Positions 1,769 to 57,243 of a stretch of 64,000 nt of DNA are shown piece by piece; positions within the stretch are counted from its first letter, which is position 1; each line of letters begins with the position of its first letter. The DNA comes from Candidatus Wolfebacteria bacterium GW2011_GWE2_44_13. GTDB lineage: Bacteria > Patescibacteriota > Minisyncoccia > UBA6257 > UBA9933. Both the position numbers and the translations under genes were made by a program. The stretch lies in NCBI GenBank assembly GCA_001000675.1, contig LCHW01000001.1, positions 488,875-552,874 on the forward strand, in the 5' to 3' direction. The notes beneath the pieces are model-generated. The model did not search any database, had not been told where the DNA came from, and was given only the letters and a program-made list of their open reading frames with translations.

Positions 1769-2152
1769 TTATTTATATTGCTGCGGATTGATCAAGAAAT
1801 CCTTAACTTTCTCCACAACCTCTTTAATTGGATGCTGACTTTTTACGAAGTAATCCTTTGCGCCGAGCGCAATTGCCTGCTTTATATCCTCGTCACCGTC
1901 TAGGTTCGAAAGTACAATAACAGGAAGGTTTTCAAGGTCATGATCCGCCTTAATATCTCGCAAAACGTCTATTCCATCACGTTTTGGAAGCATTAAGTCA
2001 AGTAGAACAAGATCCGGCTTCATTTTTTGAATGATTGGGAGTGCTACTTTTCCATCCATTGCGAGCTCTACCTGGAACTCTTCGGTTTCAAATTTTTCTT
2101 TAAGCACTCTTGCTAGAGCCTCCTCGTCTTCGACGATAACAATTTTATGCAT
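1769..2152 (-). CDS. stand-alone response regulator receiver domain protein (CheY-like)
   Basis: 127 aa. Has the IVEDE acidic pocket, the LVLLDLMLP phospho-acceptor Asp region and a conserved Lys, with no output domain. Confidence 0.85.
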   Translation of the reverse strand: MHKIVIVEDEEALARVLKEKFETEEFQVELAMDGKVALPIIQKMKPDLVLLDLMLPKRDGIDVLRDIKADHDLENLPVIVLSNLDGDEDIKQAIALGAKDYFVKSQHPIKEVVEKVKDFLINPQQYK

Positions 2153-2204
2153 AATTTCAGTATAATCTACCTTTCCTTATTTGTTAAGTATACAGGATAT
2201 CTCC

Positions 2205-3932
2205 TTATTTGTTAATATCCCCGATATCCTCAACGATGTATTTACGAGCTCGGTCAAGATTCGTGCTTATTTTCTTTGCCAAGTACTGGATTTCAGAAAC
2301 TTCCGTTTCGTCGATCTTATCATCTGCATATTTTGCTAAAATACCATCTACATCTTTTTTAATAGTTGCGATTGCATTAGCGATATCTCGTTGTGCGATG
2401 ATTACCTTGCGCGCCTGCTGTGCTTCTTTTAATCGCACGTAGAGCCATGCCGCTCCAAAGCCTCCTAATAATATCACAATCAGTAACGTAAAGAACCAGA
2501 ACTGGGTTATCTCAAGCGATCCTAAAATTAACACAGGGCGCTGTTTCACGGTAACTACCTCAGATGTTACTGGCAAGCTTAATGCGCCCCGTGCATCTTT
2601 TGCAATAACTTCAACGATATATTTCCCTGTCTTAAGCGGCTTATCCATTGATACGGCCCAGCTTCCATGATCATCTGCATGCGTATCAACTAATTGCTCT
2701 ACCTGCCCCCCCTCTGTTCGAACGGAAACACTTATCCCGACATCGGGAATCGCGAACCCAAGGACTTCTAGGTTCCCTTCTCCAACAAAAATATTTCTTG
2801 TTATTGAGGTGATCTTCGGTGCTTCTATCGGTAAAATCTCAAGTGAAAGAATGCTCTCAACGCTATTACCCGCTCGGTCTATTGCTCCAACCTTAACCGT
2901 GTAGAGCCCTGGTTTATGTAAATCAAGTTTATACGGAGATTCTGTGACGTCCTTTACTTCTCCGTTATTTTCTTGAATATAGTATCCTTTTAATCCTGAC
3001 AGTCCGTCACTTGCTGCAAATTCAATCGTAGGATCTGGATGATCAGTTACACCTCCTTCGCGAATTTTTGCCTGAAATGCTGGTGGTGGCGTTAAATCGA
3101 TTGCAATACGATAATGGAGTGTTTGACTCCATCCGACATTATTTCGGAAACGGACGTGCAGATACCACACACCCTCTCCAAGCGGTTGGAAAATTTTATT
3201 ATCGAATAATCCTTCCGATTCGGTAGGAATAAATGTTGGATCTTTATTTACTTCGGTTGCGATAGCTGTGATATCGTTAGACAACTGCCATGATGCAGAA
3301 AATCGAGTTGCAAAGTTGTACCACGCTTCTGGGTCGCGATACCCTGCTACTTGTATTTCTGGCTTTGCCGGTACGCGTGCTGCTGGCTCAGCAGGACGCA
3401 CAATCTGTACTGGCTTAGGTGCTATTGTCTCCAGTTCTGTCGATGGAACGCTTGTAATTGACAACCCCCTCATCGAAGAGAGCACGTTCGTTCCACTTCC
3501 GTCACTTGCAGTTACTGCCCCATCGGTAAAGACGATGTCGGTTTTACCGCTCCCCTTCACTTTGTATGTGATCTTAATGATTTGTAATGATCGTCCGGAA
3601 AATCCGCTCGTTGAACCCCCAAGAAAACTCACTTGCCCCGAATCATTCGAAAATGTCGGTTCGGTAAGCCAAAAATTAAATACAGACCCTGTTTTATCAA
3701 CACTCACAATCTCGAGAACATCCTTTGAAATTTGTACGGTTCCTTGTGCGGCATTCACTCCAACTCCTTCACTGTCCGTTAATACACTTACGGTAAACTG
3801 ATCCCCGATTACAAACGTATCTTTTGTTGTGCTCAACTGCAATGTTGCTGCAGATGCAGCCTGTATTGTTGTAAATAGAAATGCTATGCTCGCAACTAAA
3901 AGTGCAAATTTATATTTCATAACTCGATTCAT
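2205..3932 (-). CDS. membrane-anchored surface protein with N-terminal cohesin-like domain
   Basis: 575 aa. It has a signal peptide, then a cohesin-like beta-sandwich segment (FTVSVLTDSEGVGVNAAQGTVQISKDVLEIVSVD...GQVSFLGG...LQIIKITYKVKGSGKTDIVF). An Ig-like middle domain, a single C-terminal TM helix (FWFFTLLIVILLGGFGAAWLYV) and a coiled-coil cytoplasmic tail follow. Confidence 0.55.
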   Translation of the reverse strand: MNRVMKYKFALLVASIAFLFTTIQAASAATLQLSTTKDTFVIGDQFTVSVLTDSEGVGVNAAQGTVQISKDVLEIVSVDKTGSVFNFWLTEPTFSNDSGQVSFLGGSTSGFSGRSLQIIKITYKVKGSGKTDIVFTDGAVTASDGSGTNVLSSMRGLSITSVPSTELETIAPKPVQIVRPAEPAARVPAKPEIQVAGYRDPEAWYNFATRFSASWQLSNDITAIATEVNKDPTFIPTESEGLFDNKIFQPLGEGVWYLHVRFRNNVGWSQTLHYRIAIDLTPPPAFQAKIREGGVTDHPDPTIEFAASDGLSGLKGYYIQENNGEVKDVTESPYKLDLHKPGLYTVKVGAIDRAGNSVESILSLEILPIEAPKITSITRNIFVGEGNLEVLGFAIPDVGISVSVRTEGGQVEQLVDTHADDHGSWAVSMDKPLKTGKYIVEVIAKDARGALSLPVTSEVVTVKQRPVLILGSLEITQFWFFTLLIVILLGGFGAAWLYVRLKEAQQARKVIIAQRDIANAIATIKKDVDGILAKYADDKIDETEVSEIQYLAKKISTNLDRARKYIVEDIGDINK

Positions 3933-3979
3933 ATTAATGATCTTTTATTATAGTATACCATATGCGTCACTTCTCTGCA

Positions 3980-22296: not shown

Positions 22297-22608
22297 CTAC
22301 TGTTGCGCTGCTCGTTGTTGCTGGCGATCGATTGCGGCGGCGGTTTCTTCGCCCGTGCGACGGGCATGCGCCACCATAATGTCATTACGCAGGCTCCAGG
22401 TGGCCGGCGCTGCCGCTGCCATCCAGAAGACGATGCCGAGACCGAGAAGGGGCATCGTAAGAGTGGCGATAAGATAGAGAATCGCCGTGGCAATGAATGC
22501 CCCCCATTTGCCCTTCAAGCCGTAATAGATCGGTGTAAGGAAAATTGCCAGCACATACTGCCCGAACCCCGGGATCTCCGTTTTTTGACTTACTTCCTGA
22601 ATCGACAT
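22297..22608 (-). CDS. small two-TM membrane protein (GC-rich)
   Basis: An AAGGAG Shine-Dalgarno precedes the ATG (MSIQEV...). Two hydrophobic helices are present and a terminator lies downstream. The overlapping plus-strand ORF 22276..22695 was rejected. Confidence 0.5.
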   Translation of the reverse strand: MSIQEVSQKTEIPGFGQYVLAIFLTPIYYGLKGKWGAFIATAILYLIATLTMPLLGLGIVFWMAAAAPATWSLRNDIMVAHARRTGEETAAAIDRQQQRAAQQ

Positions 22609-22720
22609 CGGCTCTACTCCTTTGCAATGGGTTTGGTGTATCTTTTCTATCCTCGCCTCTTGAGTACTAGGTACAGTATTACAATAATACTGTAATCGTG
22701 TCAATGATTTTGTAATCAAC

Positions 22721-23182
22721 TTACATCTCCGCCCCTCCTGCCATTTCAAGGCGCTCAACGTTTATTATTCCCTCTCCATTTATACTCCCCATAACCCAGA
22801 CTCGTTGCCCTTGCTCGAATGCTGCTGTGTTGCAGAACTCGGCACGCGCATCAATAACACAGCTACTGCTCGTGGTAAATACAAGCTCCTTTGTTAACGC
22901 GGGTGCTCCCGGCTTTTCATAAATCAACACCCATTCATCTTCTTCGACATCGCCTGAGGCAATATTTTTAATATTTCCTTTTTCATTAAATGCGTATACC
23001 TGTTCTACTTTCTTTTCAACAGTCAATGCAACTTTACCTTTTAATCCTTCAGCGATTTCCATTGCAGTGCGACTTTTTTGGTAGAACGATCCAATGTATG
23101 CGCCAAGCACAAAAATACCGATACCTACTATGACGGCTAAAAATTTTGAATACCATATCACCACATTCCACTGTATGTTCAT
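22721..23182 (-). CDS. membrane-anchored hypothetical protein
   Basis: N-terminal TM helix. Lies in the same orientation as the two upstream phage-like genes and overlaps their operon end. Confidence 0.5.
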   Translation of the reverse strand: MNIQWNVVIWYSKFLAVIVGIGIFVLGAYIGSFYQKSRTAMEIAEGLKGKVALTVEKKVEQVYAFNEKGNIKNIASGDVEEDEWVLIYEKPGAPALTKELVFTTSSSCVIDARAEFCNTAAFEQGQRVWVMGSINGEGIINVERLEMAGGAEM

Positions 23183-23187
23183 ATTTT

Positions 23188-23853
23188 TTAGTTATTGTAA
23201 TACCCTGCGATTGCTCGACGAATCGCATTGATGAATAAGCGATATAGGCCCTCGTCTTCTTGTAATGCATCGCGAAGTTTTCGGCTTATCTCAAGCTCAA
23301 CCCCTCCTCCCGACATACCCCGATTGCATATATTTTCAAAGCTCTCTGGATGCATTCGCTCGTCAAACGGTTTTATCGTAATATCTACTGCCCTTAGCTG
23401 CTCTTGTATTTGCTGGACGAGTTTTTCACAAAGCCCACCAACCATAACAAATTCATCTTCTGTATCGTGCTTTCCATGAATTGCAATTACAATTTCTGCG
23501 ACACGTACCATATCCAGCGCTTGCGGTTCATTAAAATAAGCGCTGGTTATGTGGAGCTGTGCATTATCTTTTTCCCTTATCCCTTCAAAAAGATACACGT
23601 CATACTCTTCTCCTGCAATTGATTCAGCAATATTTGAAGTAAACGGCTCAATGCGCCCGCCGTGAATTCCTGCGATAAGATACGGGCTATTTCTTTTTTT
23701 TGTTACAATTCGATAGTCCTGCCCTTCTTGCATATGTGCCGCGAGATCTTCAAAGGCTCTGTATGTGTCGATCATATCTTCAGTATATCCTCTTCTCTTT
23801 AAAAAATAAAAAGGGGCGGTATGTACCGCCCCACTGTCGTTAAATGCACTCAT
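23188..23853 (-). CDS. poly-gamma-glutamate hydrolase (PghP)-like zinc peptidase family protein
   Basis: The YLIAGIHGGRIEPFT segment resembles the HGGxIEPGT metal-binding motif of the phage-associated PghP/DUF867 family. Confidence 0.5.
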   Translation of the reverse strand: MSAFNDSGAVHTAPFYFLKRRGYTEDMIDTYRAFEDLAAHMQEGQDYRIVTKKRNSPYLIAGIHGGRIEPFTSNIAESIAGEEYDVYLFEGIREKDNAQLHITSAYFNEPQALDMVRVAEIVIAIHGKHDTEDEFVMVGGLCEKLVQQIQEQLRAVDITIKPFDERMHPESFENICNRGMSGGGVELEISRKLRDALQEDEGLYRLFINAIRRAIAGYYNN

Positions 23854-24601
23854 GCGCTAACCCGAGCGCACAAGCTTGTGCGCCGTCGATTCGCTCGCTT
23901 TGACGCATTAACGCATTAACGTCTTTTACCGCTAGGCCACTCCGGCGCGCGATGATGCCTGCGTAAATGTACCCCCTGCGTTCCGCGTCGTCTGTCATCC
24001 CCTTTAAGAGTTTAATTACCGCGGGGCTCTTTTCGCAACAATGCACTCCTTTAATAATTTGTCGGGATATCGCCGCGAGCTCTCGCGTATACGGATTCCA
24101 TAGGCGCTTTCTTCGCCTACTTGTTCCTAACAGACCTCTCATAAGAATACGCACATTCACATCTGCGCATAAACAATGCTCTTGTTTACTGATTGCCGCT
24201 AAAGAATCCTTAATCGCTTGCGCCGGCACGTTCTGCCCTTTGGGCCCCATCGACACAACTCCCTCATGGAATTTCAACTCTGCGCTTTGCGACATACAGC
24301 GATGATCTCCTGCCATAAACAGCACAATCCCCGCCGATGAAACTTCTCCGACAGCGCATGTCCATAATGGCACTGCTTTTCCGTCTTGGCGCGCGTTTGC
24401 CCGCATCATTTTCCAGATACGCGCATAGAGCTGAAATGCAATCCATCCATCTCCACCTCCCGAGCAAATTGATACTATGATTTTATCTACTCCTTCGTTC
24501 AGCGCCTTGCATATTGCATCCAATAAACACATGGCCATCTTTTCGTTTACTTCGCCGAGGAACTCAATGTGATTCCCCGTTCTTCGGACTGTCCCGTTCA
24601 T
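23840..24601 (-). CDS. ClpP-family serine protease (phage prohead protease-like)
   Basis: SICSGGGDG, GEVSSAGIVLFMAG (Ser) and KFHEG (His) line up with the ClpP/S14 fold motifs. Confidence 0.6.
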   Translation of the reverse strand: MNGTVRRTGNHIEFLGEVNEKMAMCLLDAICKALNEGVDKIIVSICSGGGDGWIAFQLYARIWKMMRANARQDGKAVPLWTCAVGEVSSAGIVLFMAGDHRCMSQSAELKFHEGVVSMGPKGQNVPAQAIKDSLAAISKQEHCLCADVNVRILMRGLLGTSRRRKRLWNPYTRELAAISRQIIKGVHCCEKSPAVIKLLKGMTDDAERRGYIYAGIIARRSGLAVKDVNALMRQSERIDGAQACALGLAHECI

Positions 24602-24721
24602 AGGCGCCTCCTCCGGTTGGGGTTATTAAAAAGTTTCTGCCCCTAGCGTACCAAGCGTAACCCGCGCTGTCAAAGAAGCCATTCCATTTTACAATCTGCA
24701 CAAATATCCTATACTACCGAC

Positions 24722-25285
24722 ATGTCATCTACTGTCACAAAACCAAAACTTGTTCTCCATATCTGTTGCTCTATTTGTGGGGCATATCTTTCTGAGCTTC
24801 TTAAAGATCGCTTCGAGATTATCTACTATTACTACAACCCCAACATTCACCCCGAGGAGGAGTATGAGAAACGTAAAGCATCTGTGCAAAAACTTGCAGC
24901 CCTCTACAATTCTGAATTCATCGAGGGTGATTATGCGGTGCAGGAATGGTACAAAACGATTAGTGGATTTGAAGGCGAACCTGAAGGTGGCAAGCGTTGC
25001 CCGTTGTGCTTCCGTATGCGTCTCGCAAAAACTGCGCAGCTCGCCGTCGCAAAAGGTGCAACGCATTTTACAACCACCCTTGCAACGAGTCCTTATAAAA
25101 ACGAAGATGTTATCGGTGCTATTGGTACAGAAATTGCCAAGGAGCTCGGCCTCACCTTTCTTACTGTTGCTGACTTCGGGGAATCTAAAAAAGATATCTG
25201 GGCAAAAACACGTACACTTGCCAAGGAGCACAACTTCTATCATCAAAATTACTGCGGATGCACCTTTAGTATTTGGAAAAAATAA
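24722..25285 (+). CDS. queH: epoxyqueuosine reductase QueH (DUF208)
   Basis: LVLHICCSICGAY, YYYYNPNIHPEEEY, CPLCFRMRL and the C-terminal CGCTFS Cys cluster are typical of QueH. Confidence 0.85.
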   Translation: MSSTVTKPKLVLHICCSICGAYLSELLKDRFEIIYYYYNPNIHPEEEYEKRKASVQKLAALYNSEFIEGDYAVQEWYKTISGFEGEPEGGKRCPLCFRMRLAKTAQLAVAKGATHFTTTLATSPYKNEDVIGAIGTEIAKELGLTFLTVADFGESKKDIWAKTRTLAKEHNFYHQNYCGCTFSIWKK

Positions 25286-25286
25286 A

Positions 25287-25315
25287 ACCGGCGATTGCCG
25301 GTTTTATTTTTCCTT
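25287..25315. terminator. bidirectional rho-independent terminator
   Basis: aaaaCCGGCgattGCCGGtttt hairpin. Confidence 0.6.
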
Positions 25316-25945
25316 CTTAAATATGAGGTATGAGTAGAGCACAGTCCAAATCGTGCTTATTATAATAGGGATGAGTATTAACCCAATAACATATTGCGGA
25401 AATAGAAATCCAAGCAATATAATCAATCCGCATGCTTTAAATAATTTACTCCCTAATGCATGGGTTTTATCCCACACAACGTCACTGCTCATTGTCCATG
25501 GCGTACGAATACCCATAAACCAATTACGCTTCACTTCATGTAAAAGTATCCCTATCCCATAGAATAGTACGGCAAATGCCGGAACGAGTGCTGTTGTCAT
25601 CGAAAATACTACCCCCTTATTCCATACTAATATCGCTCCAAACAAATACGCCATAAATACCGCAAACAATAATGCAAATTCTTCAAACTGTTTTTTAAAG
25701 ATTGTACTATTACTTTTTAATGGATCCATTTTAGGCAGTACCGCAAAAAGCATTTGTATAGCAGTCATCACTAAAGGAACCAAAAACAATCCGAAGAGCT
25801 TTCCCGAATGTCCATCGGCCTCTCCCATCGCATTCCAATGCGTTGCCATGCGTTCTGGCATAGTCGCATACAATCCGATTGCGGCAATCCACACAGCCCC
25901 TGTAAGTATCCACGTAATTTTTTGCGTAGGTATCTGCTTATTCAT
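25304..25945 (-). CDS. SdpI/YhfL-family membrane protein (DUF1648 N-domain)
   Basis: Multi-TM protein carrying the GIRTPWT signature of the SdpI immunity-protein family. Start is placed at the first true ATG. Confidence 0.65.
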   Translation of the reverse strand: MNKQIPTQKITWILTGAVWIAAIGLYATMPERMATHWNAMGEADGHSGKLFGLFLVPLVMTAIQMLFAVLPKMDPLKSNSTIFKKQFEEFALLFAVFMAYLFGAILVWNKGVVFSMTTALVPAFAVLFYGIGILLHEVKRNWFMGIRTPWTMSSDVVWDKTHALGSKLFKACGLIILLGFLFPQYVIGLILIPIIISTIWTVLYSYLIFKKEK

Positions 25946-25998
25946 ATACCCTAAGGATACCACATATCCGTACGACTCTTACAAATCCGTTAAGCCCC

Positions 25999-26027
25999 TT
26001 GACATTCATTCGTTCCCATGCAATACT
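25999..26027 (+). promoter_or_regulatory. sigma70-type promoter (TTGACA-17-tgcAATACT, extended -10)
   Basis: Exact -35 TTGACA, a 17-bp spacer, and TGnAATACT. Confidence 0.5.
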
Positions 26028-26033
26028 ACTCCT

Positions 26034-26128
26034 ACGTAGCAGCAAACAGGCAATTTGCAAGTCGCAAGACGAGTGGAAGGTTTCTAGCTGCTACGTATTA
26101 AAAGAACCTCTTCGGAGGTTCTTTTAAT
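26034..26128 (+). ncRNA. candidate small RNA, copy 1 (about 95 nt)
   Basis: Lies between its own promoter and an intrinsic terminator (GAACCTCttcgGAGGTTC followed by TTTT). It contains a 5' stem ACGTAGCAGC...GCTGCTACGT enclosing a variable loop. No ORF and no downstream gene lie on this strand. Confidence 0.45.
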
Positions 26129-26214
26129 ACGTACTCCATTTACATCAATTCCCGTAGCGTTTATTCCCGCGGATACAAGGACCTTAATTTAGAAATGACA
26201 AACTAGTATAAACC

Positions 26215-26244
26215 CTTGACATTCATTTTATACTATGCAATACT
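26215..26244 (+). promoter_or_regulatory. sigma70-type promoter, duplicate
   Basis: Identical -35 and extended -10 as the copy-1 promoter. Confidence 0.5.
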
Positions 26245-26250
26245 ACTCCT

Positions 26251-26346
26251 ACGTAGCAGCAACTAGCAGTTCACGAGTCGCAAGACAAGCAGAAGGTTTC
26301 TAGCTGCTACGTATTAAAAACACCTCTTCGGAGGTGTTTTTAATAC
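26251..26346 (+). ncRNA. candidate small RNA, copy 2 (tandem duplicate with divergent central loop)
   Basis: Same promoter, closing stem and terminator as copy 1. The central roughly 35 nt differ. Confidence 0.45.
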
Positions 26347-26374
26347 GTACTCCATTTCTATATTCTTCATAACA

Positions 26375-26408
26375 AAAAACGGAACGCATTATGTGCGTTC
26401 CGTTTTTT
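26375..26408. terminator. bidirectional terminator downstream of the helicase gene
   Basis: aaaaaaCGGAACGCAttatgTGCGTTCCGtttttt hairpin. Confidence 0.6.
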
Positions 26409-26410
26409 CA

Positions 26411-27958
26411 TTACCGACTATCCGCTTTCGGACGTGACTTCTTACCGAACATACGTCCATGAGACGATGCTCCGCGATCACTCTTCTTTCCTGCTCCTCG
26501 TTGTACCGGCTTGCGTCGGTCTTCGCGATTTCCTGCTGGCGCTGGACGCTCATTTGAGAATCCTGCTGTCGCTGGTCGGCGTGACGGGAATGCATCATTG
26601 CGTGGGCTTGGTGTCCCTACTGACATCGAATTGCGTGCTGGAAATGCATCGGTGCGTGGGCCGCGATCGCTCGCGCCTCCCATTGTCATTGGTCGGCGTG
26701 GTGCGAATGAATCGCGTGATCCGCGATCACCGCCCCGTCCTTGCGGACGACGATCTCCTCCGCGTCCTCCCCCGCCAAAGCGGCCTCCACGAGATTCTTC
26801 CTCCTCTTCACGATATGCTGGCTCGCGATGTGGTGGTAATGTCGGTAATGGAGATGTTCCAATTTGTGAATTTACTAAACGCTCAATCGTTCGAACCTTG
26901 AATCGCTGATCAGGTGCAGCAAAAGAAATAGCTCTTCCCTTTGCGCCTGCTCGGCCAGTTCGTCCAATGCGGTGTACGTAATCCTCTGGACTATCCGGTA
27001 AATCATAGTTGATAACCAATTCGATTCCTGTTACGTCGATACCACGGGCAGCAATATCAGTTGCTACCAACATGCGGTACTTACCCATTTTAAATCCAAG
27101 CAATGCTTCTTTTCGCTGTGATAATGACTTATCAGAGTGAATTTCCGAAGCGCTGTGTCCCATTCGCTTTATTGCTCTGCAAATTTTCGTTGCACCATGT
27201 CGTGTTCGTGAGAATACGAGTACGGTTCCTTGATATTTTTCAAGTAATGCTTCAAGTAAACGATCTTTATCATCCTTGCGAACGATAAACATTTCTTGAA
27301 TCACGTTTGCTGCAGTTGTTCCTGGACGCGCCATTTCGATGCGTACTGGTAACTGCATGTGCTTTTCGGCAATGCGCACAATATCAGTAGGCATGGTTGC
27401 TGAAAACAGCAACGTCTGACGTACCTTTGGCAATGCTTCAATAATCTTGTTGATCTGCGGTGCAAATCCCATGTCGAGCATGCGATCTGCTTCGTCGAGT
27501 ACTAACATGTTCACCGCTTGCAAATGCAATGTGCGCTGATTCATGTGGTCAAGAAATCTTCCCGGAGTTGCAACGATAATGTGCGGGTTTCGGCGGAGTA
27601 ATTTCTTTTGTGCTTCAATAGATGCACCACCAATTAATACGGCAGTCATTAAGCCAAGCTCGTGTCCGATTGCCTGTATCTGTTCGTCAACCTGCAATGC
27701 AAGTTCACGAGTCGGCACTAAAATAACGCCTTGGTTATCGCCTGTCGCAAGTCGCTGGATCATCGGGATACCGAAGGCGAGCGTTTTACCTGTTCCGGTT
27801 TGCGCAATACCAATCATATCCTTACCGCTAATGGCAATAGGAATACCCTCCTTTTGAATAGGAGTTGGTGTGGTGAATTTTTTCTTGTCGAGAATTTCAA
27901 GCAGCTTGGGCGCGATGCCTAAGCCGTAAAAACCCTCCGTTGGTTTTTTTGTTGTCAT
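26411..27958 (-). CDS. DEAD-box ATP-dependent RNA helicase with C-terminal RG/RGG-rich tail
   Basis: Q-motif, AQTGTGKT, DEAD, SAT and HRIGRTGR motifs. The GC-rich 3' end encodes Arg/Gly repeats. Confidence 0.9.
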   Translation of the reverse strand: MTTKKPTEGFYGLGIAPKLLEILDKKKFTTPTPIQKEGIPIAISGKDMIGIAQTGTGKTLAFGIPMIQRLATGDNQGVILVPTRELALQVDEQIQAIGHELGLMTAVLIGGASIEAQKKLLRRNPHIIVATPGRFLDHMNQRTLHLQAVNMLVLDEADRMLDMGFAPQINKIIEALPKVRQTLLFSATMPTDIVRIAEKHMQLPVRIEMARPGTTAANVIQEMFIVRKDDKDRLLEALLEKYQGTVLVFSRTRHGATKICRAIKRMGHSASEIHSDKSLSQRKEALLGFKMGKYRMLVATDIAARGIDVTGIELVINYDLPDSPEDYVHRIGRTGRAGAKGRAISFAAPDQRFKVRTIERLVNSQIGTSPLPTLPPHREPAYREEEEESRGGRFGGGGRGGDRRPQGRGGDRGSRDSFAPRRPMTMGGASDRGPRTDAFPARNSMSVGTPSPRNDAFPSRRPATAGFSNERPAPAGNREDRRKPVQRGAGKKSDRGASSHGRMFGKKSRPKADSR

Positions 27959-28146
27959 ACTATTTGATTATGTGATTCCTTGTATCAACTCGAATCACAT
28001 AGCAATAACATGACAAGAAGTTCGTTCGCCTACATATCCGCACAGCGGATGGCGATAAGGAATCTATTGGCGTCTTTCGAGACCAATATGATTTAATTTG
28101 AACTGACGTTTCAATATACAATAGATACCTTTTCGTGTCAACCCTA

Positions 28147-29436
28147 CTACCTTAAGTAGATCGTATGGCTCAGATAGCCTGTAATATACTCGGGATTTAG
28201 GCGATTAGCCCTGTCTTCCTCAATCTTTTTGATTAATTCCATAAAGAATAGGTCTACGTCTTTTTCTTCATGATATTCGGTCAAATTTCTCTTATTAAAA
28301 TACCGCGTTAACGCATCGATTACCTTTTTATAAAAATCTTTGTCCGTAACCCCACTTGCAATGAGATATAGTAACACCATATATGCCGGCGACGCCTTTG
28401 CATCCGCTAATGCCTCCAGTTCAGTTACCATCGTGCCGAACAATGGATCATTTTTATCACTCTTTATTACTGCGTGATACATTGCAGATTTTGCAACAAG
28501 CTCGTTGAAAATCAATTTCGCATCTTTTATAACCAACGTTTCGTATATCTTTACGAGGTTTGCCTTTGTCGCCTTCTCAATTGTTCCTACTTTTATTTCT
28601 GGTCGATAGAGATGAAACGCATTATAATATTGCCGCAAAAATCGCTCTTGTATGGCGTGATTAATTACATTTTCCAAAAATAAATTCCACCCTTTAAAGG
28701 CTTCATCAATATCCATTCCGCCACGTTCCAATTCAGAAAGCATTTTATTTTTAATCAAATCCCCTGCTGCTAACGGTACGCCGCGATCGTTCAATCCTTC
28801 AAACAACATAAATGCATCCGCGTGTGAACTAACCTCGATCATTACTACGAGAATACTATCAATCCATGTAAAAAGCTTTTTCAGTCCTTCCAAGTCATAC
28901 TCTTTCAATCTGCCTAGAAAGTAGTCATACGCTTTATATATTTTTCTCGCCTTTCTTCCCCGTACCTCTGTTCCTATTTTTAACAATCCAAGGTCAGCTA
29001 ATAGCGCCTCAAAGTCCACGAGATTTCCATGCTGTTCTGATAAGATAATGCGCGTCCACGCCTCCCCTCCTCCCTGCACTATGCGCGTTTTAATTGTCTG
29101 CAATAATTCATTTGCTCCTCCCGCTGCATCAGCCGGCAACGCCTTAAGCGCCGCGTGTAATGCACAATACAATACTGTAATAGTTGCGAGACGTTGCTGC
29201 CCGTCAACCACTTCCAATTCCTGCACCCCCAACGTCGCTGTATTCTCATTTTTTACACATAAAATCGAGCCGATGAAATTTCCTTCTCCATTGCCTTCCA
29301 CCATATCATCAAACAATACCTGCCAATTTTCACGAGACCAGATATATTCCCGCTGAAATTTAGGAATAACATACCGAACGTTCCCTCCCTCACGAAAAAG
29401 ATCCGAAATCGTATAGTGGTTTGTATTGTATATCAT
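28147..29436 (-). CDS. DUF262 (GmrSD N-terminal ParB/Srx-like domain) protein, stand-alone
   Basis: The VIPKFQREYIWSRENWQVLFDDM...IGSIL...VVDGQQRLATI segment is the DUF262 signature including DGQQR. No C-terminal DUF1524/HNH motif could be found. Confidence 0.75.
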   Translation of the reverse strand: MIYNTNHYTISDLFREGGNVRYVIPKFQREYIWSRENWQVLFDDMVEGNGEGNFIGSILCVKNENTATLGVQELEVVDGQQRLATITVLYCALHAALKALPADAAGGANELLQTIKTRIVQGGGEAWTRIILSEQHGNLVDFEALLADLGLLKIGTEVRGRKARKIYKAYDYFLGRLKEYDLEGLKKLFTWIDSILVVMIEVSSHADAFMLFEGLNDRGVPLAAGDLIKNKMLSELERGGMDIDEAFKGWNLFLENVINHAIQERFLRQYYNAFHLYRPEIKVGTIEKATKANLVKIYETLVIKDAKLIFNELVAKSAMYHAVIKSDKNDPLFGTMVTELEALADAKASPAYMVLLYLIASGVTDKDFYKKVIDALTRYFNKRNLTEYHEEKDVDLFFMELIKKIEEDRANRLNPEYITGYLSHTIYLR

Positions 29437-46389: not shown

Positions 46390-46608
46390 ATGGAAAACAC
46401 AACACAACAAACCCCCGAGGGATGGCATGCTGAAGCATGGGAAGCATTCAATGCAAAGATGAAGACGATGTCAAAAGAAGAGCTTATTAAGGCATTTGAG
46501 GATCTCGATCTCGTATTCGAAGAGCCGGAAGAGCTTACTGCTGAAGATGTCATCTCTATTGCCGATGTCTTGTCCGAAGAAGATGTGCGCGCATATTTCA
46601 AAATATAA
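46390..46608 (+). CDS. small acidic hypothetical protein
   Basis: 72 aa, followed by a strong terminator. A degraded paralogous copy lies at 60.0-60.16 kb. Confidence 0.5.
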   Translation: MENTTQQTPEGWHAEAWEAFNAKMKTMSKEELIKAFEDLDLVFEEPEELTAEDVISIADVLSEEDVRAYFKI

Positions 46609-46618
46609 CGTTATATAA

Positions 46619-46648
46619 AATACCCCCGAAATTCGGGGGTATTTTATA
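46619..46648 (+). terminator. rho-independent terminator
   Basis: aaaaTACCCCCGaaatTCGGGGGTAtttta hairpin. Confidence 0.6.
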
Positions 46649-46675
46649 GTGGCTATGAACACGAATATGGAAAGC

Positions 46676-53643: not shown

Positions 53644-55320
53644 TTACGTCAGCCAATTTAATGCTTTTTGTACAATTCCATCGTACCATTCTAATTCTGA
53701 GTTAGTTGTACTTGCCAACTCATTTGAATGCTCAAAAAATCGTTGAATATGTCTTGGTTCTGGCACATAATCAACATTGTGAGAATCCTCAACCATTTTA
53801 ATAAATACGCTTAACGGCAATGGGACAATAGTTGAAGTTCCACCATAATAACCAATGTTCATTTTATGTAAGGCATAAAAATGAGCTATACAAGCATCGT
53901 TTATTTTTGGTGCAATAAACAAGCAATAAGCAGGCTTATTAGTTTCTCTTTTTACTTTAGCAAGATGCCTTGCTACTGGCTCCCCTTCAGTTTCGTATTG
54001 TCGCTGTCCGCTTTGCATCGTAACTTCTACCGTTAATCCAAAGTCGCCATAATCGCATGTGATGTCCGCCATATTCCCCTGTGCAGTTGACATTGGTTTT
54101 CCAAAATCGTCAAATTTTAAATTTGCTTTTATATTGCCACCGTCTAACATTGTCATTGCTCTCCAAGTGTTCCATTCCAACATCAAAGGAGTGTCATAAA
54201 GTGAATTATCTAAAATTTGGTCAAATGTAGAATTAATCTCTTCAAACAAATGGTAATCTTTTATCGCAGTAACTTGCTCTGTAATAATTTGTTCTCTTCT
54301 ATTTTCTAATTCACCAGCGAATACATCTTTTAATTGTTGCAAGGTTAACGTTTTATTTACATCAATTTGAGGAAATTCTGTTCTTATTTTTTGCTCAAGC
54401 AATGATCGATTATCGCTTAATAAACTAGGGGCTGCTGCATTTCCAAGATAAGCTACATATTGTATTTCATCATCTATAAAGCAAGGCTCTCTATCAGTAT
54501 GCTGTAAAAAGTAATCTACTTCTTGTATTTTTTCAGGAACAATTGAAATTGACTTCCCAATGTGTGAAATATTGACTAATCCCGTTACTCGAATATACCT
54601 AACACAGGCATCAGCATAATCTCGCAGATTACTTGCTTTTGTTTTTAAGAATTTTTCAATAGAAGCATCGTCTGTTTGTCTTGTCTTAGTTTTACCCGAA
54701 ACAATATCGCAACCATAGATTTGTCTTAGTTCTGCGTCTAAATATTCTGACTTAAATTTTTTAGAATTTCCTTGATATTGTGCTTTTGCAATTCGAAAAT
54801 TTTCAATTTTTAAAACAATATTATCAAATTGATGATAGTCGACTAATTGCAAACCAAAGATCATTAGCTCATCAAATTTAAGCGAGCCAAAATGACGGAT
54901 TAAACGAAATAATTCAAGATAAGGTTTTATCAAAAAGTCGGCAGAATTTTTCGAAGGCTCATGATAGGGCGATGGAACTTGAAACTTTAGTAACTGCCTT
55001 AAGAAAATTTCCTCTTTTCGTCTTGATGTAACTAATTCTAAACCTGCCGGCGTTAAGCTCACAGTAGGAGATAAAGTTACGAATCCAAGTGATTTTGGTG
55101 CTCTGTTAATTCTATCTCTTGCACTAAATGCAGGATCATTCGCCCCTTCGCCATTAAAAAAATTCTCTTGTTTTAAGAGCTCCATAAAGGCAAGTTGTGT
55201 TTCTCTGTTCCACACCTGTCCTGAAAAATGAGCATTCAATAACTCAATTTCGGGGATCATTTTAGACGGCGTTCTCGGAGATGTTGTAACAAATATTACT
55301 TTACTATCAATCTTTGCCAT
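53644..55320 (-). CDS. type II restriction endonuclease, AlwI/BstNBI/PleI family
   Basis: 558 aa. The N-terminus (VIFVTTSPRTPSKMIPEIELL...FSARDRINRAPKSLGFV) and C-terminal region (EPVARHL...YCLFIAPKIND...VPLPLSVF) parallel the conserved blocks of Nt.BstNBI/AlwI-family enzymes, recalled from memory. The gene is immediately downstream of and co-oriented with a Dam-type methyltransferase. Confidence 0.6.
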   Translation of the reverse strand: MAKIDSKVIFVTTSPRTPSKMIPEIELLNAHFSGQVWNRETQLAFMELLKQENFFNGEGANDPAFSARDRINRAPKSLGFVTLSPTVSLTPAGLELVTSRRKEEIFLRQLLKFQVPSPYHEPSKNSADFLIKPYLELFRLIRHFGSLKFDELMIFGLQLVDYHQFDNIVLKIENFRIAKAQYQGNSKKFKSEYLDAELRQIYGCDIVSGKTKTRQTDDASIEKFLKTKASNLRDYADACVRYIRVTGLVNISHIGKSISIVPEKIQEVDYFLQHTDREPCFIDDEIQYVAYLGNAAAPSLLSDNRSLLEQKIRTEFPQIDVNKTLTLQQLKDVFAGELENRREQIITEQVTAIKDYHLFEEINSTFDQILDNSLYDTPLMLEWNTWRAMTMLDGGNIKANLKFDDFGKPMSTAQGNMADITCDYGDFGLTVEVTMQSGQRQYETEGEPVARHLAKVKRETNKPAYCLFIAPKINDACIAHFYALHKMNIGYYGGTSTIVPLPLSVFIKMVEDSHNVDYVPEPRHIQRFFEHSNELASTTNSELEWYDGIVQKALNWLT

Positions 55321-55326
55321 ACATTT

Positions 55327-56235
55327 TTAATACACTAATTTCTTACTAAATTCTAATTCAGAAAAGTTATTTTTAGCTACGTTCCCATAATTTGAAATTA
55401 AAATATGCGATGCAGTAGATTTAAACCTATTTCTAATATTTACGGAATACGATTTACCGTATTCATCTACTATCATATCTCCATAAAGTTTTTCCGTTAA
55501 TGGAGTCCTACCAATCACCATCAATGCCTTACATTTTAGATTTTTATAGGCGCTAGCTAATTCAATATGGTTTCGCTCATTAAATCCATCTTTATGCTCT
55601 ATGTTCCCATAGTCAGAAAAAATACAGTCATAAGGTGGGTCTAAAAACATAAAATCATCTTCTCCCGCTATTTCAAAAATGTGTTTGTAATCTACATTAT
55701 AAATTTCTGTATTTGAAAGCAATTCGCTATGATTTTTCGTAACTAATGCAGTATTCAAATTAGAATATCTACCATAAGGAACATTAAACTCTCCTTTGGA
55801 ATTGTATCTGATCATTCCTGAATAAGCTGTTTTATTTATAAAAAAATACAACAAGGCATCTGAAAATTTTTTTTCAGCCAAATCATTAAACATATCTCGA
55901 ATTTGATAATATAAGACTTCATTATCATCTTTAACTCTCAATTCAGGGGTTTTACTTTTAAGTTCTTCAAATTTTCTACGATTTAAAGTGTAAACTTTTT
56001 CTATTTGTGTAAGTTCATTTTGAATTAATTCAAAATCTGTTTTTATGCCATTGTAAAATGATATTAATTTAGAATTAATATCATTTATCACTGCTTTTCT
56101 TGGCTCCAAATAAAAATACAAGGCACCGCCACCAAAAAAAGGTTCGATGTATTTGCCATCGAATTTTGGGATATGTTTTATAATGTGTGGAATTTCTTTT
56201 GATTTACCACCCCTATATTTAACTAATGGTTTCAT
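55327..56235 (-). CDS. DNA N6-adenine methyltransferase, Dam/D12 class (alpha group)
   Basis: KYRGGKS, EPFFGGGALYF (motif I) and FLDPPY (motif IV) follow the Dam/DpnM motif order. Confidence 0.85.
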   Translation of the reverse strand: MKPLVKYRGGKSKEIPHIIKHIPKFDGKYIEPFFGGGALYFYLEPRKAVINDINSKLISFYNGIKTDFELIQNELTQIEKVYTLNRRKFEELKSKTPELRVKDDNEVLYYQIRDMFNDLAEKKFSDALLYFFINKTAYSGMIRYNSKGEFNVPYGRYSNLNTALVTKNHSELLSNTEIYNVDYKHIFEIAGEDDFMFLDPPYDCIFSDYGNIEHKDGFNERNHIELASAYKNLKCKALMVIGRTPLTEKLYGDMIVDEYGKSYSVNIRNRFKSTASHILISNYGNVAKNNFSELEFSKKLVY

Positions 56236-56315
56236 GTTTATTTAAGTATACCATTTTTGAGATAATGTGGTCAGTCACCATTTATTCCACTTTCTAATTC
56301 CCCTTTCATCAACTC

Positions 56316-56382
56316 CTCAATCTTACCAAATTTTGACCTGTTATGTAACCAACACAAAACGAGGCCTGCGGGCCTCGTTTTT
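56316..56382 (-). promoter_or_regulatory. terminator-plus-promoter intergenic cassette, copy A
   Basis: Read on the minus strand: hairpin AAAACGAGGCCcgcaGGCCTCGTTTTgtgttgg, then TTACAT-17-TAAGAT. It serves the NYN-1 3' end and the MTase 5' end. Confidence 0.55.
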
Positions 56383-56482
56383 AGGTGAATTTGATGTGGG
56401 GGGGTGGATTCTTTAATGCAATACAATAGCAACTCTGAATTCTCGCCCACGTAAAGTCCGCCGGGGGCGGACCACGGGGCGA

Positions 56483-56593
56483 GCGAGACTAGGATAATCT
56501 GCTGTGGATAGCTTGCTTTTGCTTTCCATGGAAATAGCTTTAGCCACCTTAAGCATTACCCACCATTGACATTAACTGCTTGCTTGGTATACT
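56483..56593. repeat. conserved roughly 100-bp module downstream of the NYN gene, copy A
   Basis: About 92% identical to 61118-61216. It contains a plus-strand promoter TTGACA-16-TATACT at 56566-56593. Confidence 0.6.
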
Positions 56594-56599
56594 TTAAAT

Positions 56600-56657
56600 A
56601 TCACGACGAGGGCAGGTTCATAAGGGTTGGTCCTTATGTAATTGGCCCTCTTTTTTG
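56600..56657 (+). ncRNA. predicted short cis-antisense RNA overlapping the NYN-1 3' end
   Basis: Starts about 7 nt after the -10 TATACT. GAGGGC...GCCCTC hairpin followed by TTTTTTGT. It overlaps the last roughly 13 codons and the stop of the minus-strand NYN gene. Confidence 0.4.
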
Positions 56658-57163
56658 TACTCCAATCTATTCCGTAGATTATTCATGAAATCTATTTTAT
56701 CTACGGCAACGGAATTAAGCAGATTCGAATATGCCTCCTTATTAGGCACTAATAATTTATGCAGCTTTTTATTATTGTTTAGATACTCGACAAGACAATA
56801 GAAATCGCCATCCCCCGAAACTATTAACGCTTTCTCATAATTTATATATTCGATCATGGCATGCAAAACCATCTCGGCATCAGCGTTTCCCTTTACCTTG
56901 CCATTTGGCAACTCGAGCGTTGGCTTAAATATTAATATATATCCAAATTTTTGTAACGCCGTATAGAGCCTCTGGTTTGTTGGCACATACCCGATAAAAA
57001 TAAATGCCTTTGTTACTCCATATTTATCCTTTAAATAAACTCTAAAACGTTCAAAATCAAGCTTCCATCCTTCGTAAACTTTTTCACCCTGCTTATCATA
57101 AACGTCATTACCAACTCCAAGATTTAAATTTTGACTATCAATAAATGCGTAATTATTAGCCAT
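56618..57163 (-). CDS. NYN-domain (LabA-like, PIN-fold) nuclease, copy 1
   Basis: NYAFIDSQNL, GNADAEMVL and SGDGDF give the four conserved Asp of the NYN/PIN fold. Start is placed at the internal ATG because the upstream 44 codons translate the repeated intergenic cassette. Confidence 0.75.
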   Translation of the reverse strand: MANNYAFIDSQNLNLGVGNDVYDKQGEKVYEGWKLDFERFRVYLKDKYGVTKAFIFIGYVPTNQRLYTALQKFGYILIFKPTLELPNGKVKGNADAEMVLHAMIEYINYEKALIVSGDGDFYCLVEYLNNNKKLHKLLVPNKEAYSNLLNSVAVDKIDFMNNLRNRLEYKKEGQLHKDQPL

Positions 57164-57179
57164 ACTTTTATATATAAAT

Positions 57180-57243
57180 AATCTTACCAAATTTTGGCCT
57201 GTTATGTAACCAACACAAAACGAGGCCGTAGGGCCTCGATTTA
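57180..57243 (-). promoter_or_regulatory. terminator-plus-promoter cassette, copy B
   Basis: AAATCGAGGCCctacGGCCTCGTTTTgtg followed by TTACAT-17-TAAGAT directly upstream of NYN-1. Confidence 0.55.

Follow-up and report, generated by a model that had tools for sequence, protein, structure and literature searches.

In the window, by which we mean the whole 64-kb stretch of DNA that was analyzed, two minus-strand genes are separated by an intergenic region in which two similar units are read on the plus strand, each consisting of a promoter and a predicted small RNA. The features of this locus are as follows.

25304..25945, minus strand: gene for an SdpI/DUF1648 membrane protein of 213 aa (Pfam PF13630 and PF07853), divergent from copy 1
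25946-26410: intergenic region between the SdpI/DUF1648 gene and the DEAD-box helicase gene
25996-26141, plus strand: repeat unit, copy 1
25999..26027, plus strand: promoter of copy 1 (-35 TTGACA at 25999-26004; 17-nt spacer ending in TG at 26019-26020; -10 AATACT at 26022-26027)
26033..26141, plus strand: predicted RNA of copy 1, about 100-109 nt (fold, inverted repeats I3 and I6, covariance model R1)
26033-26043 and 26087-26097, plus strand: closing stem P1 of copy 1
26061-26070, plus strand: apical hairpin GUC-GCAA-GAC of copy 1, which caps an inner irregular helix
26092-26110 and 26115-26133, plus strand: arms of the 3' hairpin of copy 1, with a TTCG loop
26134-26141, plus strand: tail of copy 1, CTCCATTT
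26142..26215, plus strand: inter-copy spacer, whose ATTCCCGCGG segment matches, by direct reading, the DNA just 3' of the single copy in the orthologous locus L041
26213-26357, plus strand: repeat unit, copy 2
26216..26244, plus strand: promoter of copy 2 (TTGACA, 17 nt with TG, AATACT; promoter scan)
26250..26357, plus strand: predicted RNA of copy 2 (fold, inverted repeats I4 and I8, covariance model R1)
26250-26260 and 26303-26313, plus strand: closing stem P1 of copy 2
26277-26286, plus strand: apical hairpin GUC-GCAA-GAC of copy 2
26308-26326 and 26331-26349, plus strand: arms of the 3' hairpin of copy 2
26374..26408, both strands: bidirectional terminator AAAAAACGGAACGCA...TGCGTTCCGTTTTTT (inverted repeat I5), which ends the helicase gene on the minus strand
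26411..27958, minus strand: gene for a DEAD-box RNA helicase of 515 aa (Pfam PF00270 and PF00271), convergent with the RNA copies

The SdpI protein is present with its exact sequence on 23 contigs, the longest of 789,550 bp, and is identical to ACD_81C00177G0002 of the Rifle aquifer bins; its nearest named relatives, among other Parcubacteria proteins, are those of Candidatus Wolfebacteria. These matches assign the window to a groundwater genome of the Parcubacteria, within the candidate phyla radiation (CPR). Contigs L001-L008, which come from at least seven independent metagenome assemblies of Rifle and other groundwater (Logan, ENA, JGI, and NCBI), are 100.000% identical to positions 22304-28945 of the window over up to 6.6 kb, and they are, as judged by this identity, the same clonal population sampled repeatedly. 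The translated helicase has an Arg/Gly-rich C-terminal tail. This tail (26411-26900, minus strand) is long, of low complexity and rich in Arg, Gly, and Pro (RGGRFGGGGRGGDRRPQGRGGDRGSRD...), and some RNA helicases have similar tails that bind RNA. Further neighbours of the RNA locus are QueH and a GmrSD restriction gene. On the plus strand, no gene was found downstream of the RNA copies, as had been stated in a preliminary description of this DNA. Most genes of the 64-kb window lie on the minus strand, and the GC skew is negative nearly throughout. The GC content of positions 54000-58000 is 0.32-0.37, compared to about 0.43-0.45 elsewhere, and this stretch, with minus-strand ORFs at 53644-55320, 55327-56235, 56618-57295, and 57334-58155, may be an acquired island.

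The two units are direct repeats with a start-to-start offset of 216-217 bp and 87% identity over 146 nt, so that the two tandem units about 215 bp apart of the preliminary description were confirmed. Confirmed as well were three further elements that it had assigned to each unit: an exact TTGACA-17-TGnAATACT promoter, which the promoter scan recovered as TTGACA-17-TGcAATACT in both units (copy 1 scored 10/12 with the TG); a closing stem, P1 (TACGTAGCAGC/GCTGCTACGTA), which is formed in each unit by a perfect inverted repeat of 11 nt; and a conserved core, AGTCGCAAGAC, which is carried by both and consists of a 3-bp stem and a GCAA tetraloop. A search of the window with a 37-nt core pattern returned two exact matches in 64 kb, compared to 0 expected. 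The 216-bp duplication was not among the repeats that TRF reported.

The plus-strand RNA of each unit is predicted to fold into two abutting hairpins and to be almost entirely helical. The predicted energy is -45.1 kcal/mol for copy 1 (z = -8.0 against shuffled sequences) and -41.5 kcal/mol for copy 2 (z = -7.0), and the z-scores ranged from -7 to -8.7 in every species tested. In both units the 3' hairpin has perfect 19-nt arms around a TTCG loop. Inside P1, the preliminary description had perceived about 35 nt that differed completely between the copies, and it had accordingly proposed a stable scaffold with different specificity loops and distinct targets. The alignment contradicts this view. 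Among the inner 43 columns, 33 are identical between the copies, with 9 substitutions and 1 indel; the region is conserved in the orthologues too; and the differences (10/43 columns) are located mostly at paired positions. What had been taken for a loop is an irregular helix, which is conserved and closed at its tip by a tetraloop that is GCAA, GUAA, GAAA, or GCGA among the orthologues and always GNRA. The tails and the 3' strands of the junction are identical in copies 1 and 2. In the inner helix P3 of copy 2, a tandem U·G/G·U is replaced with C·A/A·C, and the hairpin of copy 1 shows compensated changes (GAACC/GGTTC vs. ACACC/GGTGT). Together, these changes indicate that both copies have been under structural constraint since the duplication.

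Orthologues were obtained from gene-neighbourhood look-ups of SdpI relatives and from one metagenome pattern scan, and 11 further distinct versions of the RNA element were found. Those of the main clade are L041, which is the Wolfebacteria orthologue (identical in L039, L040, and L053), L042, L043 (identical in L052), L044 (identical in L045), L054, L059, L060, L062, L064, and L065, while L057 (identical in L058) is a divergent version. On every contig long enough to show it, the RNA is convergent with the helicase gene and lies upstream of SdpI/QueH, giving the orthologous order helicase, RNA, SdpI, QueH. An extra small gene is found between the RNA and SdpI in L054 (280-543; 87 aa) and L060 (1845-2179; 43 and 75 aa called); it has no Pfam match and is absent in the other genomes. 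One SdpI relative, P0014 (51% identity; L055 and L056), was rejected as neither syntenic nor accompanied by the RNA.

In the metagenome scan, the fixed-spacing pattern identified 5 true loci (3 distinct sequences, one of which is that of L041) and 6 chance matches, with the window's own genome not among them. Viral contigs scanned by pattern gave 0 matches. A further 30 genome-contig matches of GTCGCAAGAC-N(4-12)-AAGGTTTCTA included no homologue, as 27 of them encode LGRKTGKGFY and its relatives and 3 are unrelated. It should be noted that GTCGCAAGAC-N5-AAGGTTTCTA recurs over many phyla (L009-L038) since its translation, GRKTGxGFY, lies close to the C-terminal end of a conserved protein, which we take to be 3-hydroxyacyl-CoA dehydrogenase, and is thus a trap for nucleotide pattern scans.

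The covariance model R1, which was built from 12 main-clade sequences, scored copy 1 at 112.4 bits and copy 2 at 111.9 bits, with a range of 111-123 bits across the 12 main-clade sequences and 34 bits for L057. Applied to the 64-kb window, R1 found the two copies only, and nothing was found in the non-syntenic and control loci searched; a weak match at 46607-46665 of the window was rejected as an ordinary terminator hairpin. In each relative's locus, which for most comprises only a few kb around the site, R1 gave one same-strand match. On this evidence, the tandem pair would be a recent duplication particular to the source genome, one copy being seen per relative's locus. The predicted RNA represents a new small RNA family of restricted distribution, which the searches made recovered from a narrow Parcubacteria clade only.

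In L057, P1 is fully rewritten (GCCACCGC/GCGGUGGC), a CUC-GAAA-GAG hairpin is added and the terminator is an ordinary one of 13 bp. L057 retains RAAC and UUCGCC-AGUC-GCGA-GAU, and the apical helix is the sole sequence that the main clade and L057 have in common. Because L057 keeps the apical helix while rewriting P1, this helix is the sequence-conserved core of the RNA.

The promoter is conserved along with the RNA. In 12/12 main-clade units the -35 element TTGAC(A/T), the 17-nt spacing, the TG and positions A2 and T6 of the -10 element are kept, while the sequence of the spacer drifts; after the TG and one further nucleotide, the -10 element of these units reads R-A-Y-A-N-T. The predicted transcription start is located at the foot of P1. 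Promoters of the same type precede protein genes elsewhere in the window. At 2145-2215 (minus strand), a direct repeat TTAACAAATAAGGA(G/A)..., 28 bp apart, creates a pair of overlapping sites that look like promoters (TTAACA-17-TATACT) and closely precede an ATG at about 2151.

Across ten main-clade species, the identity of the RNA to the window copy varies from 79 to 90%. In the same comparison, the nucleotide identity is 62-71% for the SdpI gene and 77-79% for the helicase core, whose protein identity is 90-93%. The RNA thus evolves more slowly than the neighbouring membrane-protein gene, its nucleotide conservation is similar to that of the helicase core, and its sequence is under strong purifying selection. 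Given the strong promoter and this slow evolution, the RNA is likely to matter to the cell.

The pattern of substitution follows the predicted fold, which RNAalifold found independently. In the 12-sequence alignment, 98% of the cells form standard pairs, compared to 35-48% in slid controls. In the 3' hairpin, each of the 19 pairs is intact in 12/12 sequences (228 cells), and 5 of them change on both sides, although the main clade is so closely related (mean column identity, 91%) that few of these events are independent. Among the pairs of this hairpin, 61:100 occurs as AU, GC, and UA, 67:94 as UA and GC, and 68:93 as four types. With L057 added, changes on both sides were found in 4/8 pairs of P1 and 9/16 pairs of the hairpin; this total of 13 was reached in 0/500 shuffles, with the qualification that L057 is a single lineage and was aligned to the model, so that the alignment is fitted to the model. 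The inner helices P2-P4 are 95% paired and show one-sided changes only (G·U to A-U or G-C), with no double compensatory change, and their exact pairing rests on thermodynamics. Compensation of the stems in homologous loci had been named in advance as a check on the preliminary description, and compensatory changes were present. Furthermore, the alignment has 53 G·U cells, and the 5' domain is 96% paired when read on the plus strand but 77% when read on the minus strand; both results argue against an element that acts at the DNA level or on the minus strand.

Further analyses of coding potential revealed no ORF that is conserved across the orthologues on either strand, as frames and lengths differ. 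The only ATG lies within the -10 element, upstream of the predicted start. It opens a frame of 22-35 codons in several orthologues, and a 1-nt indel in 3/12 sequences shifts that frame. The frame-shifting indel and the position of the ATG led us to reject a coding reading of the RNA region, and the earlier statement that it contains no plausible ORF holds. An antisense ORF of L041 (about 3786-3945 on the plus strand of that locus; AAGGAG-N5-ATG, 43-50 codons) was rejected as well, as it is not conserved in other species. Three of the features by which a free-standing sRNA gene is recognized, namely a conserved promoter of its own, a strand-specific structure with compensatory changes and a lack of conserved coding potential, were found.

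The 3' end was described previously as a long perfect terminator hairpin. The hairpin is indeed long and perfect, but it does not appear to be a canonical terminator, since its T-run sits within the 3' arm, for which reason a simple terminator scan called none in this region. By eye, the upper 7-9 bp and the following UUUU fit a canonical terminator. Pairing runs 6-8 bp past the internal U-run and covaries there (the pairs 61:100, 67:94, and 68:93), and the hairpin is followed by a tail, ACUCC(A/U)UUU, whose ACUCC is kept in 10/12 main-clade sequences; the tail is absent in L059 and L057. The covariation past the U-run and the conservation of the tail make it probable that the whole 19-bp hairpin belongs to the mature RNA. 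The first canonical hairpin with a U-run 3' of the RNA copies on the plus strand is the terminator at 26374-26408. It has equivalents in L041, L042, L054, L059, L060, L062, L064, and L057, with compensated variants across species (CGGAGCGC/GCGCTCCG, CGGCTCGCG/CGCGAGCCG, and GCTCCGCC/GGCGGAGC).

Searches against known families, a match to which had been named in advance as grounds for refuting the preliminary description, gave no assignment. With Rfam 15, the whole 64-kb window had 0 matches at the gathering threshold. Searches at E ≤ 1 or E ≤ 10 with the RNA in isolation, with the region around it and with the divergent orthologue gave only hairpin-driven noise well under the family thresholds, such as rsmX at 23.7 bits, compared to a threshold of 56. 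No SRP, 6S, tmRNA, RNase P, antitoxin, or riboswitch family of Rfam matched the isolated RNA at E ≤ 10, which for the first four agrees with the preliminary description. ARAGORN identified no tRNA or tmRNA in the window. In the full-text literature on sRNAs of CPR bacteria, Parcubacteria, and Wolfebacteria, we found no description of this RNA or of regulatory or structural RNAs specific to these bacteria.

Taken together, these results are best explained if both units are genes that are transcribed independently of each other and specify a structured noncoding RNA of about 100 nt, which belongs to an uncatalogued family of a narrow, Wolfebacteria-like clade of Parcubacteria and whose 5' domain would serve as a recognition surface for a protein or RNP. 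We put the probability of this reading at roughly 60%. It keeps the earlier conception of each unit as an independent promoter-sRNA-hairpin gene that is noncoding and outside Rfam. From a sigma-70-type promoter, the predicted transcript would begin at the foot of P1, a closing stem of 8-11 bp. The 5' domain, above all the apical helix UUYGCC-AGUC-GNRA-GAUY, would be the functional part, and instead of pairing as a linear antisense seed it would most likely present a folded surface that a protein or RNP partner recognizes. A folded, probably protein-bound function is favored over seed pairing because the GNRA motif is kept while the sequence of the loop varies. Likewise, P1 is a helix rather than a seed, given that it is completely rewritten in L057. 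A recognition element is also suggested by the finding that only the apical helix is deeply conserved in sequence, and by the fact that no target stood out in the window-limited scan described below. The 3' hairpin (18-19 bp, UNCG loop) would contribute 3'-end formation and stability. The two copies probably represent dosage or incipient divergence, not two specificities.

An alternative that we consider unlikely, though it has to be taken seriously, is that the units encode a pair of trans-acting base-pairing sRNAs that act on different mRNA targets near ribosome-binding sites. Each unit has its own promoter and hairpin without a downstream gene, and tandem sRNA paralogues are common in bacteria. 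The likeliest seed would be the pyrimidine-rich, anti-Shine-Dalgarno-like tail ACUCC(A/U)UUU, which could be single-stranded and whose ACUCC most main-clade sequences keep, or the strands of the junction. It is difficult, however, to reconcile distinct targets with copies that differ at so few inner columns and are identical in precisely these tails and 3' junction strands. The RNA is nearly all helical, its loop varies as a GNRA motif does and not as a conserved seed would, and the tail is missing in two versions. Target prediction for the two copies, which had been suggested earlier, was run on the 82 start regions of the 64-kb window (the genome is about 0.8 Mb), and the duplex energies were no better than those of shuffled sequences: the best was -39 kcal/mol, compared to a mean of -38 kcal/mol for the shuffles, which reached -48 kcal/mol.

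The hexamer UACGUA raises the possibility of a moving part. It occurs three times in the main-clade RNA, and its middle copy is able to pair with either the 5' copy, in P1, or the 3' copy, in the basal part of the hairpin. The 5' arm of the 3' hairpin shares nucleotides with the 3' strand of P1. In the alignment, column 61 covaries with both partners. All three hexamers are altered in concert in L041, while in L059 only the middle and 3' hexamers are altered and one pair of P1 is broken. The RNA could thus be a lineage-specific RNP component or conformational device in which the 5' and 3' copies compete for the central one, so that the junction between the recognition hairpin and the 19-bp duplex can migrate. 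This could gate the binding of a partner, e.g., RNase III or another enzyme that binds dsRNA, or the DEAD-box helicase, which is always adjacent. We hold this for rather improbable, and the linkage to the helicase may simply reflect the generally conserved gene order of the clade. If true, this RNA would count among the earliest functional regulatory RNAs to be described for the candidate phyla radiation.

The TACGTA palindromes, three in number, and the long perfect inverted repeats, which fold as hairpins on the minus strand too, could also be taken for an element that acts in the DNA or on transcription alone, e.g., protein-binding palindromes, a cruciform, or an insulator or terminator block between the helicase and SdpI genes. 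This is very improbable: the 53 G·U cells would not pair in DNA or on the opposite strand, where they become A·C mismatches, a conserved promoter is directed into the element, the minus-strand hairpin is without a following U-run in most orthologues, and covariation is seen in P1 and the hairpin, whereas L057 lacks the TACGTA hexamers.

There is equally little to be said for an RNA antitoxin, of type I or type III, or for a cis-antisense regulator of a neighbour. A short, structured, strongly promoted and tandem RNA that adjoins a GmrSD restriction gene and lies between two minus-strand genes might suggest either, and an RNA antitoxin had been among the earlier proposals. That proposal is contradicted by the lack of a conserved small ORF for a toxin on either strand, and no toxin-like gene is adjacent in any locus, the neighbours being SdpI, the DEAD-box helicase, QueH, and GmrSD. 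A single copy per relative's locus is unlike the repeat arrays of type III antitoxins. As for cis-antisense regulation, the predicted RNA begins about 54 bp past the start codon of SdpI and stops short of the helicase terminator, and L054 and L060 have another small gene between the RNA and SdpI. The chance is just as slight that the RNA is a stand-alone, riboswitch-like switch, in which a ligand or partner that stabilizes P1 would alter the hairpin and hence read-through. The alternative pairing of the middle UACGUA, the covariation of column 61 with both of its partners and the concerted changes in L041 (all three hexamers) and L059 (middle and 3') are consistent with a switch. Nevertheless, at least 13 bp of the hairpin (13-19 bp) are retained in either state of the junction, so that termination would hardly be altered; nothing lies downstream to be regulated; and the overlap between P1 and the hairpin is missing in L057, with no match to a riboswitch family.

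The least probable of the readings, a divergent housekeeping RNA and above all a small SRP (4.5S) RNA, accommodates the size, the strong promoter of its own, the strong conservation, the reduced genome, the irregular hairpin of 60 nt, which has purine-rich 2x2 internal loops and ends in a GNRA tetraloop, and a window without any detected RNA family, SRP RNA included, but it fails on the absence of an SRP, 6S, tmRNA, or RNase P match in Rfam even at E ≤ 10, on the missing symmetric-loop bases of 4.5S RNA, on a separate 19-bp 3' hairpin that is foreign to SRP RNA, on a tandem duplicate with altered loop-proximal bases, which would be unusual for an essential RNP RNA, and on a distribution that is confined to a narrow clade by the searches possible.

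The reading of the units as genes for a structured noncoding RNA with a folded recognition surface is a modest claim, as the family is narrow in distribution. It nonetheless provides a concrete candidate for an Rfam family, with 12 main-clade sequences, one divergent sequence and a model, as well as a target for metatranscriptomics. Bacteria of the candidate phyla radiation have tiny genomes and are mostly uncultured. The duplication in the source genome also amounts to a natural experiment on the divergence of a structured RNA.

Among known systems, the small SRP RNA (4.5S, RF00169) is alike in size class, in its elongated irregular hairpin closed by the 5' end, in the apical GNRA loop, in the purine-rich internal loops and in having its own promoter. 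In 4.5S RNA, the symmetric loop has 5' AGG and 3' AGCA beside the GGAA loop. The RNA described here has the GNRA loop, but the strands that flank this loop read CA/AA 5' of it and GAGUGG, AAGCAG, or UAGUAA 3' of it, and the RNA differs from RF00169 in being without the conserved bases of the symmetric and asymmetric loops, in its extra 19-bp 3' hairpin, in its duplication and in its restriction to one clade. The 3' hairpin resembles an intrinsic terminator in its upper part, where (G/A)CACCUC-UUCG-GAGGUG followed by UUUU looks standard and A-rich bases upstream pair with the U-run. In contrast to such a terminator, pairing and covariation here continue past the U-run and are followed by the conserved ACUCC(A/U)UUU tail. 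Generic intergenic sRNA genes, e.g., PrrF1 and PrrF2, which are tandem sRNA paralogues, differ from the units described here, which match no curated family, are almost fully helical with no obvious single-stranded seed and belong to a CPR lineage; they are alike in their free-standing promoter, a transcript of about 100 nt (predicted here), a stable terminal hairpin, the absence of an ORF and tandem duplication in one lineage.
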